Of a stretch of DNA of 35,608 nucleotides, positions 10,497-13,034 are shown one piece after another. Origin of the DNA: an uncultured Eubacteriales bacterium (GTDB taxonomy: Bacteria > Bacillota > Clostridia > Oscillospirales > Acutalibacteraceae); assembly GCA_964505515.1 (NCBI GenBank), contig CAZDIN010000002.1, forward strand, positions 1 to 35,608, read 5' to 3'. How positions within the stretch are numbered: the stretch's first letter is position 1; the number at the start of each line of letters is the position of its first letter. A model generated the notes under the pieces. It was not told the origin of the DNA and ran no database searches. It saw only the letters and a program-made list of their open reading frames with translations. The position numbers and the translations under genes were made by a program.

Positions 10497-13034
10497 ATGA
10501 AGAGATTACTTTCTGTGATGTTGTGTATCGCGCTTATTATAACGGTTGCTCCTATGACCGTTGCCACATCTGAATCAGCACAATACCAGCTGGCTCAGTT
10601 CCCCTCGGTTATAACCGAACAACAGATCGAAACTAACGGTCTTAAAAGGCGTTTACCAAAATATGATAGCTATACCAACGCAATTGGATACGAAAATGAA
10701 GACGGATCTGAAACGGTCTTTATCTATACTGATGACATTAAGTATAAAGATGAAAACGGAATAATTAGAGATAAAGACATAAATATAGCGTCTGCAAATT
10801 TGTTGCAAAAATCATCAGGATATTCATATAAGACGAAATCAAACGATATTCAGGTGTATTTTGCTGACAAAATATCGAAAGATACAGGAATAAAGATAGA
10901 GTACAAAGGCAAAGAGATAAAACTTGCGCCTAAAGTAAATCAGCAAGAAAAAAGAACCTCTGCAAAACAGACTGCCAAGTTGATAAAAGACACAGGTGTA
11001 GGTGGTAGCGGTTTAGAGAACATAATGCAGTACGATCAGGCAATCAGCGAAACCACTCATTTGCGTTTTGAAACAACCTACAGCGGATTAAAGGAAGACA
11101 TTATTCTTGATAAGTACACAGGCACAAACCGTTTTACATTTATCGCGGATTTTGATGATTTAACACCCGTTGCTTATAACAGAGGGGTACAAATCTATGA
11201 CGGGGATAGCGTAATAATGGAAATTCCTCCGATATATATGGAGGATTCCGGCGGAGAGTTTGATCCGGGCAGCAGAATTTCTATTGACAACACTATTGAA
11301 CTGTCTGCTCTCCCTGACGGAACCTACGAGCTTACAATAATTGTTGATAATGATTTCTTGACAAACAGCGACACTGTATATCCCGTGATTATTGACCCTT
11401 CTATAAACATAAGTTCATCCAGTCATAGCGACGCTTCTGTATATTCCCAGTGGCCTAACGACAACTGGGCAGGTCAGCTTCGTAATAACGTAGGAACCGA
11501 CAGAGTTTTGGGTACGGGTGTCTTCTATACTAAGTTTGACATTTCTGCATTATCAGGAATAAGGTACGATAATATAATCAGTGCTTATTATCATTGTTAT
11601 GAATTAACGGAAAACACCGAAAACTCGGTTATACAAGCATTCCTGGTGCAACAGGACTGGAGCGAATCGGAGATTACTTGGAATAACAGGCCCTCGTGCC
11701 ACTGGGAAAAGTTATGTGCCGTTAATGTAAATTCAATTGAAAAAAGTTCTAATGAAAACTATTGGTATGATTTTTATATTACATCCGCAGTTATGGCCTG
11801 GCTTCAGGGTGTTCCCAATTACGGAATAGGGCTTTGGGAAAGAACCCACTCGGGCTGGAAAGGTTTTGGTTCGGAAGAAAACGCGTCTTATATGCCGTAT
11901 TTGAAGGTGTCTTACGTCAATGAAGAAGAGGTTCCGGAAGGATTAGGATTAACAAACTTCAAATCATATTACATAAAAAACAAACGAAGTGGTTTATATT
12001 TAACCACCAGCGGAGATTACGATGAAGCAAATATTTATCAAAGCAATTTCACCGGCTCTTCTAACCAAAAATGGACATTAAAGTACCAAGGTGATGGTTA
12101 TTATAAAATCCACCCTGAAAATTCTGAACGCTTGATAGATGTTTATGGGGGTTCTGAGTATCCGAGCGGAAACATGAACGATACTAACATTCAATTGTAT
12201 CAGAATAACGGGGGATATAACCAACACTGGAAGATAGTTAGAAACTGGAACGGAACATACCGATTCTTGTCAAGACTGAGCGGATACAGCAGAGCTTTTG
12301 TTGTGCAGGGCGCGAGCTACTCAAGCGGAGAAAACGTAATTTTATATGATTATTCCTCTGATTATATGTTTAATGACGATTGGACACTTGAACCCGTAGA
12401 ATTGGGAGATGCTGATTTTTATAGTTTTACTGATTCTGGAGGATATGGTGTAGACACAACCGAAAACATCAATCAGGCTGTTGATTTGGCAGCAAGCATT
12501 GGATTTACAAGCTACAATCTTTTCAATCGCTCTGCGTATGATGCGTACAATTTTATGATGCTTGACGATTTGTGGTATTTTACAGGTCATGGCGACAGAA
12601 GCTACGCTCAATTCAACTCACTTAATGGTGATACGTGGGAAAAGAGTTACATCACTGCATCAGGAACAAATAATTACAGTATTAATTATAAAATAAATTT
12701 GATGACAGAAAACCAACTAAAAGGATTAAGCCTGGCTGTTTTCAGTTGTTGTCGTGCAGGAGAAAATGACGGAGATTCAAATATGGTTGGGAATGTGTAT
12801 AAGCGCGGCGCTCACTATGTGGTCGCTCATACCAATATAATAACAAGTGTGTATAATTCCGCATGGATGGTTCAGTTTTTGACTGCACTAAATAATGGAT
12901 ACTGTATTTACGACGCTATGGAAGTGGCGGACGAGTATTTATATTATTATTATGGAGGCACAGTTGCAGGCACAATAAATAATTTGAATCAAAGACATAC
13001 ATTAGGTGATGGTTCCGTAGTATTAAAGCACTAA
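10497..13034 (+). CDS. Secreted multidomain protein: signal peptide, beta-rich N-terminal region, DNRLRE-like (ITWNNRP) module, ricin-type beta-trefoil lectin, and a C-terminal clan-CD (caspase/gingipain/CHAT-like) putative cysteine peptidase domain
   Basis: The RBS is AAAGGAG. The Sec signal peptide is MKRLLSVMLCIALIITVAPMTVATSES. The central segment (DASVYSQWPNDNW...FYTKFDIS...SEITWNNRP...PYLKVSY) resembles DNRLRE-type beta-sandwich modules. Three lectin repeats each carry a QxW-type motif (NQKW, NQHW, NDDW). The final roughly 210 aa have a strand-His-Gly (LWYFTGHG) followed 53-54 residues later by a strand-Cys (LSLAVFSCCRAG), then GAHYVVAHT. This is the order and spacing of a clan-CD catalytic dyad. 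Confidence 0.6.
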   Translation: MKRLLSVMLCIALIITVAPMTVATSESAQYQLAQFPSVITEQQIETNGLKRRLPKYDSYTNAIGYENEDGSETVFIYTDDIKYKDENGIIRDKDINIASANLLQKSSGYSYKTKSNDIQVYFADKISKDTGIKIEYKGKEIKLAPKVNQQEKRTSAKQTAKLIKDTGVGGSGLENIMQYDQAISETTHLRFETTYSGLKEDIILDKYTGTNRFTFIADFDDLTPVAYNRGVQIYDGDSVIMEIPPIYMEDSGGEFDPGSRISIDNTIELSALPDGTYELTIIVDNDFLTNSDTVYPVIIDPSINISSSSHSDASVYSQWPNDNWAGQLRNNVGTDRVLGTGVFYTKFDISALSGIRYDNIISAYYHCYELTENTENSVIQAFLVQQDWSESEITWNNRPSCHWEKLCAVNVNSIEKSSNENYWYDFYITSAVMAWLQGVPNYGIGLWERTHSGWKGFGSEENASYMPYLKVSYVNEEEVPEGLGLTNFKSYYIKNKRSGLYLTTSGDYDEANIYQSNFTGSSNQKWTLKYQGDGYYKIHPENSERLIDVYGGSEYPSGNMNDTNIQLYQNNGGYNQHWKIVRNWNGTYRFLSRLSGYSRAFVVQGASYSSGENVILYDYSSDYMFNDDWTLEPVELGDADFYSFTDSGGYGVDTTENINQAVDLAASIGFTSYNLFNRSAYDAYNFMMLDDLWYFTGHGDRSYAQFNSLNGDTWEKSYITASGTNNYSINYKINLMTENQLKGLSLAVFSCCRAGENDGDSNMVGNVYKRGAHYVVAHTNIITSVYNSAWMVQFLTALNNGYCIYDAMEVADEYLYYYYGGTVAGTINNLNQRHTLGDGSVVLKH

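Follow-up and report, generated by a model that had tools for sequence, protein, structure and literature searches.

Caspase-like domains with a histidine/cysteine (H/C) pair were described in 2012 as the C-terminal-most module of multidomain polymorphic toxins that are exported by the general secretory (Sec) pathway (Zhang, Aravind et al., PMC3482391). The same work reported RicinB adhesion modules near such heads, recombinational exchange of the heads and a small gene that follows directly (PMC3482391). The locus analysed here lies on contig CAZDIN010000002.1 (assembly GCA_964505515.1) of an uncultured Eubacteriales bacterium (GTDB lineage Bacteria; Bacillota; Clostridia; Oscillospirales; Acutalibacteraceae), and the whole stretch that was studied, positions 1 to 35,608 of the forward strand, is called the window in the following. 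The open reading frame (ORF) at 10497..13034 (+), which starts with ATG in the ORF list of the window, encodes a protein of 845 amino acids (aa) whose C-terminal domain is referred to as the head; a small lipoprotein gene follows. Compared by description, these features of the Tox-Caspase systems, namely the terminal H/C domain, RicinB, head exchange and the downstream small gene, are seen at this locus. In contrast to these systems, the window protein is without RHS, filamentous or LXG stalks, and its downstream gene encodes an extracytoplasmic lipoprotein by prediction and not a cytoplasmic Imm protein. The original prediction for this gene had taken the architecture to be undescribed, which does not hold for the class, known since 2012 (PMC3482391); it is this particular peptidase family that is unmodelled. 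The concept of a caspase-like toxin head combined with RicinB is already known and the novelty would lie in the peptidase family. No NCBIfam or Pfam model names the head domain, and searches of the literature that combined CHAT with beta-trefoil or with polymorphic toxins, or caspase-like with ricin-type secreted proteases, found no description of the family.

WapA polymorphic toxins carry DNRLRE in their N-terminal part (Streptococcus suis WapA-CT1, PMC12704120). A Sec signal, an unknown N-terminal domain, DNRLRE and a polymorphic C-terminal head are common to WapA and the window protein, and the WapA-type likeness that had been proposed for the N-terminus is reasonable on these grounds. WapA proteins are longer than 2000 aa (>2000 aa) and contain LysM and RHS cages with nuclease heads that are delivered into target cells, unlike the window protein with its 845 aa, no RHS and a head of the extracellular protease type. 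CHAT peptidases (PF12770; 8tl0, Csx29/Craspase 8eex and 8d9f, DdvA 8rot) have the caspase-haemoglobinase fold in common with the head, as well as a His-then-Cys dyad after adjacent strands and the motifs G-H-G, C-x-x-G and G-A. Known CHAT proteases are cytoplasmic or membrane-associated, serve in signalling and defence, are fused to SAVED, TPR or anti-sigma domains and are activated by nucleotides or partners. The window protein differs by its predicted Sec export, its lectin fusion, the absence of a sensor and its sub-threshold standing for the CHAT hidden Markov model (HMM). Gingipains R and K (C25, Porphyromonas gingivalis; 1cvr, 4ief) and, by prediction, the window protein are secreted clan CD enzymes with adhesin or carbohydrate-binding modules. 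Gingipains are found in Bacteroidota and possess an N-terminal prodomain, an Ig-like subdomain and a C-terminal domain (CTD) of the type IX secretion system (T9SS), whereas the window protein has its peptidase last, would use Sec in a Gram-positive organism, lacks a C25 HMM match and has a lipoprotein partner. In staphopain-staphostatin and streptopain-type operons, the gene of a secreted cysteine protease is followed by a small gene for a cognate partner, an arrangement that the window locus resembles. These proteases have the papain fold of clan CA, and staphostatins are lipocalin-like proteins of the cytoplasm, unlike the clan CD head and the surface lipoprotein with an Ig-like domain at the window locus, for which a partner role is putative.

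By analogy, the window protein may be regarded as working like a gingipain-style secreted protease with adhesins and as evolving like a polymorphic toxin. The preferred reading, to which a probability of roughly 0.6 is assigned, is that of a horizontally acquired cassette for a CHAT-like endopeptidase of the polymorphic-effector type, secreted by Sec and targeted by its lectins, together with its cognate lipoprotein.

Fold and predicted catalytic pair of the head

The head and its candidate catalytic codons are located as follows:

12390..13034 (+), C-terminal clan CD (CHAT-like) cysteine peptidase domain, aa 632-845, plus stop codon (predicted from AlphaFold2 (AF2), Foldseek and CHAT matches of relatives)
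12588..12590 (+), codon of H698, predicted catalytic His in GHG, just after strand beta3 (translation; conservation)
12750..12752 (+), codon of C752, predicted catalytic Cys, second Cys of FSCCRAG, just after strand beta4 (translation; conservation)

The AF2 model of the 214-aa head, built from a 16-sequence alignment, reached a predicted local distance difference test score (pLDDT) of 86.9 and a predicted template modelling score (pTM) of 0.88. Its modelled elements follow the order b1-a1-b2-a2-b3-[His]-hairpin-b4-[Cys]-a-b5-a-a-a-b6, which corresponds to the caspase/gingipain topology. Foldseek comparison with the PDB recognised the domain as an alpha/beta sandwich and yielded 53 matches at E ≤ 1e-3, and the 50 best, which are those listed, all belong to clan CD. 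Among the matches listed, the best was the SAVED-CHAT filament protein 8tl0 (E 1.4e-7, TM-score over the query (TMq) 0.67) and the second best gingipain R (1cvr, E 8e-6); TMq values for the SAVED-CHAT and gingipain R matches were 0.64-0.68. Further matches comprised caspases 1, 3, 6, 7, 8 and 9, CED-3, MALT1, Csx29, separase and DdvA, and a viral structure library gave solely caspase and metacaspase matches. The clan CD assignment of the original prediction is borne out in that AF2 and Foldseek place the head in a peptidase fold alone.

Every motif that had been quoted was found at its place and spacing in the 845-aa product: LWYFTGHG at 692-699, LSLAVFSCCRAG at 744-755 and GAHYVVAHT at 771-779, with 53/54 residues between H698 and C751/C752. 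In domain numbering of the AF2 model, strand 61-66 leads to H67 (H698) and a Gly, and strand 115-120 to C121 (C752). The His precedes the Cys, each follows a hydrophobic beta-strand, and both stand at the C-terminal ends of their strands in the canonical beta3/beta4 positions. The motif FSCCRAG compares with QACxG of caspases, and the family consensus reads small residue-C-x-T-G. A Cys in SCC at the strand end had been expected and is present; the catalytic candidate within it is the second one, C752, and not C751.

A word-indexed homologue search with the 214-aa head alone returned no relatives, which is a sensitivity artefact because the full-length query and an exhaustive HMMER search both found many. 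With the full-length query, relatives of the same architecture were obtained at 87% down to 31% identity. The exhaustive HMMER search, run over 1.84 billion cluster representatives, detected 160 representatives (clustered at 50% identity) at E ≤ 1e-3, 37 of them at E ≤ 1e-10. Clan CD thereby gains a sizeable protease family, 160 clusters from human and animal gut metagenomes, whose head is completely missed by current annotation models, the proteins being labelled only 'DNRLRE' or 'ricin'. Conservation was counted in an alignment of 118 of the 160 representatives. Position 698 is His in 112/118 and position 752 is Cys in 112/118, and the same six sequences lack both; one of the six, P0184, is probably a false positive. 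These are the two best conserved polar residues across the 118 sequences, and both are invariant in a curated set of 37. As Cys at position 751 is rare (2/118 homologues), C752 is the candidate nucleophile. Among close relatives, GHG and the second Cys occur in all carriers of the domain except P0014 (H to F, C to S). Such paired loss of His and Cys is expected of a catalytic dyad in a family with occasional pseudo-enzymes. In P0074, P0087, P0116, P0140 and P0159, as in P0014, both catalytic positions are replaced and the rest of the domain is kept; such dyad-less members are likely pseudo-peptidases. Two points on which the original prediction could have failed, a non-peptidase fold and a lack of conservation of His and Cys among homologues, turned out in its favour. 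Judged from the model, the clan CD fold with an H698/C752 dyad is considered highly probable.

Assignment to a described family is less direct. The C-terminal domains of 9/16 close relatives matched Pfam CHAT at E ≤ 1 (best E 1.4e-8), and the head of P0010, 35% identical to that of the window, scored 31.7 bits against a gathering score of 24. For the window's own head no match to CHAT (PF12770; gathering score 24 bits) was found, and it would be placed as a sister or outlier of CHAT, not as a demonstrable member. No Pfam match to Peptidase_C25 (MEROPS C25) was obtained, and the peptidase is the final domain, so that no T9SS CTD is present; no Peptidase_C14 (caspase/metacaspase) match was found for the window protein or its relatives. 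The only peptidase Pfam families among 101 distant relatives were CHAT (6), Peptidase_C25 (3) and Peptidase_C50 (1). No PDB sequence matched the head region at E ≤ 1, and an NCBIfam scan of the 37 domain sequences gave no match. HicB, the only kind of match that a 16-sequence profile produced against PDB sequences, was judged spurious. On the basis of the modelled fold, the head is best described as a clan CD domain of an unmodelled family between CHAT and C25.

Lectin scaffold and exchange of heads

Upstream of the head, the gene is divided as follows:

10484..10487 (+), Shine-Dalgarno sequence GGAG, 9 nt 5' of the ATG (read from the sequence)
10497..10577 (+), Sec-type signal peptide, aa ~1-27 (MKR, hydrophobic core, VATSES; hydropathy profile)
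10578..11414 (+), N-terminal all-beta region, aa 28-306 (AF2, pLDDT 86.3; kept in the scaffold family, including relatives with other heads)
11415..11912 (+), DNRLRE/CBM96 domain, aa 307-472 (NCBIfam NF033679, Pfam PF24517, PDB 8wab)
11949..12389 (+), ricin-type beta-trefoil lectin, aa 485-631 (PF14200, ThreeFoil 3pg0, three QxW-type repeats)

Together with the head these parts correspond to the five-part architecture of the original prediction, which was correct: signal-like N-terminus, beta region, DNRLRE, ricin and alpha/beta head. By Kyte-Doolittle hydropathy the N-terminus is signal-peptide-like, with about 19 (~19) hydrophobic residues after MKR and a 15-aa mean of ≤2.9, and a comparable hydrophobic segment is kept in the complete homologues of the alignment. 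No lipobox was found at the N-terminus of the 845-aa protein, which is predicted to be exported by Sec. For the N-terminal region, a 14-sequence alignment gave a confident AF2 model (pLDDT as listed above) of nearly all beta-strands that weakly resembles accessory domains of the beta-sandwich type in PL33 lyase, GH92 and GH97 (E 3e-4, TMq 0.43). The N-terminal ~280 mature residues had no Pfam match, and the isolated piece gave noise only. The next domain scored 76.4 bits with the DNRLRE model NF033679 (curated NCBIfam cut-off 34) and 55.3 bits with CBM96, PF24517 (Pfam cut-off 26), contains ITWNNRP at aa 393-399 and is a putative carbohydrate-binding module. The beta-trefoil reached 71.1 bits with RicinB_lectin_2 (PF14200; Pfam cut-off 25.6) and matched the ThreeFoil structure 3pg0 with an E of 9e-16. 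Its QxW-type repeats are NQKW 523-526, NQHW 575-578 and NDDW 626-629 (QKW 524-526, QHW 576-578, DDW 627-629), which would assign it to the ricin-type (CBM13-like) lectins as a predicted sugar binder. Ricin domains classically bind galactose (Gal) or N-acetylgalactosamine (GalNAc).

The ricin domain stands directly upstream of the peptidase in 55/101 relatives, while CBM96 is found in 20 and Big_2 in 13. The ricin-peptidase junction is a short conserved stretch, DDW-TLEPV-x-G-x-A-D, in which all close relatives share W629 and E632, and lectin and peptidase probably form one rigid unit. Recurrence of this unit in 55/101 relatives suggests that glycan-directed proteolysis is a recurring design. 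The peptidase domain is met with ricin only in proteins of 360-470 aa, nearly alone in ~220-240 aa and in the full architecture of 820-870 aa. Three relatives carry an extra ~180-250 aa without a Pfam match after the peptidase (P0055 aa 640-819, P0057 aa 660-905, P0059 aa 410-588). The possibility that the P0055 extension is a homologue of the downstream partner at locus L004 was rejected, as BLASTP found no similarity.

The N-terminal and CBM96 scaffold, with or without ricin, was also found with other heads: a zincin (P0019), M23 (P0027), an M10-like domain (P0032) and Amidase_6 (P0036). Pfam describes M23 as a peptidase and Amidase_6 as a putative amidase; enzymes of both families usually cut bacterial cell wall. 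A conserved secretion and stalk region with alternative, exchanged C-terminal heads, as in polymorphic effectors, is accordingly what was found. Exchange is also visible between proteins that share the clan CD head. The window protein and P0001, its closest full-length relative, are 91/91/98% identical over the first three parts, against 72% over the head; for P0010 and P0013, the values by domain are 95/95/68/53%. The window and P0001 genes were compared part by part by the Nei-Gojobori method for synonymous divergence (dS) and the ratio of nonsynonymous to synonymous divergence (dN/dS). A dS of 0.29-0.40 was obtained in the first three parts and saturation (>1.7 or undefined) only in the head, and nucleotide identity falls from ~0.9 to 0.60-0.76 at about codon 650 (~650). 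Saturated dS together with this drop indicates that recombination exchanged the head for that of a divergent allele. The saturated head dS also rules out positive selection as an explanation for the divergence and points to allele replacement. The dN/dS was 0.06-0.12 where computable, and ~0.06 in the two segments that contain the His and the Cys; these low values show that the gene is under purifying selection.

The two-gene cassette and its insertion site

The peptidase gene lies with the lipoprotein gene between two copies of a repeat:

10242..10283 (strand not assigned), left copy of a 42-nt direct repeat; host bidirectional rho-independent terminator after orf230, loop TCTC
10341..10369 (+), promoter-like TTGACA-17-TAAAAT inside the islet, 11/12 consensus positions, ~130 nt upstream of the start codon (consensus match only)
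13049..13444 (+), gene of a 131-aa lipoprotein with lipobox LLLCGC and a sub-threshold Big_2-like Ig domain (ORF; 14 nt after the peptidase stop)
13439..13480 (strand not assigned), right copy of the 42-nt repeat; bidirectional terminator, loop GCGA, which ends the islet before the 3' end of the holin gene resumes

Repeat search and terminator scan showed the two copies to be 88% identical and 3197 nt apart. The islet thus delimited (window 10284-13480, ~3.2 kb) contains two genes with a GC content of 0.39 (peptidase) and 0.43 (lipoprotein) against ~0.55 in the flanks, and a GC content at third codon positions (GC3) of 0.375 and 0.455 against 0.59-0.72 in ten neighbouring genes. The low-GC foreign islet proposed for this position is therefore real. 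An empty site was found at loci L014-L016, whose orf230 protein, P0187, is 87% identical to that of the window and where the gene order is FeoB, DtxR-like, orf230, a single terminator, holin, amidase, two unknown ORFs, GtrB-like and YfhO. At L017, which encodes an identical P0187, the site carries a gene whose product, of which the contig includes 625 aa, is 94% identical to that of the window over this length. Strains with and without the islet hence exist in nature. Alignment of the junctions with the empty site showed that the islet is inserted immediately behind the T-tract of the host terminator. The same intergenic site in L018 (2243-4368; orf230 90% identical) holds a different insert with an IS200-like Y1 transposase and three small ORFs, and this insert marks the terminator as a likely insertion hotspot. 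No integrase or transposase was detected in the window's islet. Rfam gave only a sub-threshold match on the terminator, and an RNA-element reading of the islet was dropped. As for a genomic islet, the composition is atypical, the junctions are defined and related genomes have the site empty, and the islet is best interpreted from these comparisons as a horizontally acquired, strain-variable two-gene cassette.

The GC content of homologues is below that of the host contig in 10/11 other loci. In low-GC human-gut contigs, the gene composition is near that of the host (0.35 vs 0.37-0.39), and low-GC Clostridia are for this reason the likely source. All relatives were recovered from metagenomes and genome bins of gut or rumen type, including human gut, and distant relatives of the gene are present in bins of Oscillospiraceae, Acutalibacteraceae and Ruminococcaceae. 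One bin (metagenome-assembled genome (MAG) CAZESL01; L002 and L008) carries two paralogous full-length architectures. An exact-protein look-up of the window's peptidase and orf230 returned no record, and the genomic context was taken from close homologues.

A lipoprotein gene stands directly downstream of the peptidase gene in every relative for which downstream DNA is available. Lipoproteins at the same position follow the genes of P0008, P0004, P0007 and P0001 (loci including L009, L010, L011 and L019) and, in 12 contigs (L020-L030, L032), the P0005-type human-gut gene; the M10-like-headed P0032 gene is followed by one as well. The L020-type lipoprotein and that of the window are related with a pairwise E of 1.7e-5. 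The Big_2 match of the window's lipoprotein is sub-threshold (E 0.086), and the best E among relatives is 0.0028. Lipoprotein and protease head appear to be inherited as a unit. Between P0001 and the window, the signal and lipobox of the lipoprotein are kept and the mature part is divergent (~26% identity over 47 aa, counted by eye), and the exchanged tract appears to include the partner gene in this pair. Polymorphic effector systems are recognised by the combination of a conserved stalk with exchangeable enzymatic heads and a downstream gene that is exchanged along with them.

Two human-gut contigs (L033:2651-4159, L034:2651-4159) contain a gene of at least 502 aa with a lipase class 3-like GHSLG motif. 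Its last 60 aa are 93% identical to the P0005-type peptidase C-terminus and the same lipoprotein gene comes next, which looks like a gene replacement that left a 3' peptidase remnant. In an Oscillospiraceae MAG, the downstream partner (L001:6604-7404) has two dockerin-like repeats, DVDGNGTVDSTDA and DVDGSGTVDSSDA, in place of the lipobox, and these hint at cellulosome attachment.

Readings of the cassette and its surroundings

In the preferred reading, Sec would export the first gene product with its beta-rich stalk, DNRLRE/CBM96 and ricin trefoil, and the short conserved linker WTLEPV would join the lectin part to a clan CD head with the dyad H698/C752. The lectin modules would most likely dock the enzyme on a glycan-bearing surface, where the caspase-fold head would cleave proteins. 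The membrane-anchored, Ig-like lipoprotein would most likely be a cognate inhibitor or immunity factor that shields the surface of the producer; a role as a tether is less likely. Heads (CHAT-like, M23, Amidase_6, zincin, M10-like) would be swapped by recombination on the shared scaffold. That the gene encodes an active secreted, lectin-guided protease is regarded as probable, and the further step to an inter-bacterial effector/immunity role is tentative, its odds being judged somewhat short of even. A wider proposal, that gut Oscillospirales-type Clostridia harbour an unrecognised class of Sec-secreted, contact-independent, lectin-guided polymorphic effectors whose extracellular heads (a new CHAT-like protease family, M23, Amidase_6, zincins) are swapped with cognate lipoprotein immunity or inhibitor genes, is rather doubtful; if it were true, a caspase-fold protease would be an inter-bacterial weapon that acts on the glycosylated cell envelope of the target. 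Head swapping and the always-adjacent lipoprotein constitute a testable protease/immunity-pair hypothesis in abundant, poorly studied gut commensals. Should this be confirmed, bacterial caspase-fold proteases, known from defence signalling inside cells and from virulence, would gain a further role in antagonism between bacteria outside the cell.

Several observations weigh against the preferred reading. The window's head is without a Pfam match (E ≤ 10 when run alone, E ≤ 1 in a second run) and without an NCBIfam match (E ≤ 1 in the whole-protein scan, E ≤ 0.01 alone). Matches of the 37-sequence profile to PDB sequences were marginal (E 0.045-1.7: caspase, GPI-transamidase, 8tl0), the one at E 0.045 aligning the family GHG to the caspase SHG. 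As a direct model match is lacking and the PDB sequence matches are marginal, clan CD membership rests on structure prediction and relatives. The subgroup at 31% identity has a different conserved downstream protein, with a lipobox (L004, L008) or dockerin-like repeats (L001). The co-divergence of head and partner is drawn from one pair and 47 residues, and the role of the lipoprotein is deduced from its sequence and position. Typical immunity proteins of polymorphic toxins are cytoplasmic, unlike the surface lipoprotein here. Host or dietary glycans would be just as suitable as targets of ricin and CBM96 modules. Finally, the low GC could partly reflect an amino-acid composition rich in N/Y/S/K, against which GC3 argues.

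The point about glycans leads to a nutritional or host-directed function, in which the lectins would bind host mucin, IgA or dietary and plant-wall glycoproteins, the protease would degrade them and the lipoprotein would be a receptor or anchor. The exclusive origin of the relatives from gut or rumen-type metagenomes and bins, the classical Gal/GalNAc binding of ricin domains, the dockerin-like repeats of the L001 partner with their suggestion of cellulosome attachment and the weak likeness of the N-terminal region to accessory domains of glycan-degrading enzymes all agree with such a function. The founding member of CBM96 is reported to bind alginate (PMC9971899). Nevertheless, strain-level presence and absence at a terminator hotspot would be unexpected for a housekeeping foraging enzyme, as would recombinational head replacement and M23 or Amidase_6 heads on the same scaffold, and the DNRLRE N-terminus is common to the WapA antibacterial toxins. 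This function is the serious alternative to the preferred reading and is considered unlikely.

Improbable is an autoprocessing function, in which the head would act only in cis to mature or release a surface adhesin and the lectin part would be the functional product. The majority of the caspase-like domains found in polymorphic toxins and large surface proteins are regarded as releasing peptidases (PMC3482391), and the short, highly conserved ricin-peptidase linker with its two invariant residues could be seen in the same light. However, the head is C-terminal-most, with nothing beyond it to be released, a position assigned to the toxin versions (PMC3482391). The same scaffold bears M23, Amidase_6 and zincin heads, which are effectors and not self-processing domains, and the same domain also occurs alone or with ricin only in proteins of 220-470 aa.

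The genes next to the islet raise the question of phage cargo. On the minus strand, window 13488-16334 contains a holin (Phage_holin_4_1), an endolysin with Amidase_2 and PG_binding_1 domains and two unknown ORFs, one with weak tail-fibre likeness. The holin-amidase block adjoins GtrB-like and YfhO genes and is kept in all related strains, and no capsid, terminase or integrase genes were found in the rest of the window. These findings suggest that a domesticated lysis cassette, or what is left of a prophage, lies next to a surface-glycosylation locus. The idea that the peptidase is cargo of a phage, serving as a depolymerase, receptor-binding protein or lysis accessory of the adjoining holin/endolysin cassette, draws on the holin and amidase pair within 60 nt and on the weak tail-fibre-like ORF and GtrB-like gene beyond it. 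It is very improbable, given that no PHROG matches and no relatives in IMG/VR viral contigs were found, that the block from holin and amidase to GtrB-like and YfhO is kept at the empty site, and that the window is devoid of the phage genes named above. Phage-receptor glycoproteins, which had been put forward as one possible target of the protease, receive no support, holin and amidase being also present in islet-free strains.

Equally improbable is a head that is dead or a non-peptidase alpha/beta domain with a coincidental His/Cys pattern. The lack of a direct HMM match for the window's copy and the persistence of six relatives without both residues would be in line with such a head, but the His and Cys are the best conserved polar residues in the 118 sequences, are lost only together, occupy the exact clan CD positions and lie in segments with a dN/dS of ~0.06. 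An intracellular anti-phage CHAT protease, comparable to CBASS SAVED-CHAT or the type III-E Craspase, has a negligible probability, as the fold matches to the SAVED-CHAT filament 8tl0 (the best) and Csx29 and the adjoining phage-type holin and amidase genes are outweighed by the hydropathy-based signal peptide, three extracytoplasmic carbohydrate-binding-type modules, the absence of a SAVED, TPR, cyclase or Cas partner, PADLOC results that were only noise for the gene and its neighbours, and the presence of holin and amidase also without the islet.

Farther downstream, behind YfhO, window 20719-25773 contains genes for an NTP_transferase, a DegT/DnrJ aminotransferase and a UDP-galactopyranose mutase. 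On account of these sugar genes, the islet is seen to border a cell-surface polysaccharide or teichoic-acid glycosylation region. The host DNA of the window also contains, at 2271-3032 (-), a gene for a separate 253-aa Peptidase_M23 protein that is unrelated to the islet.

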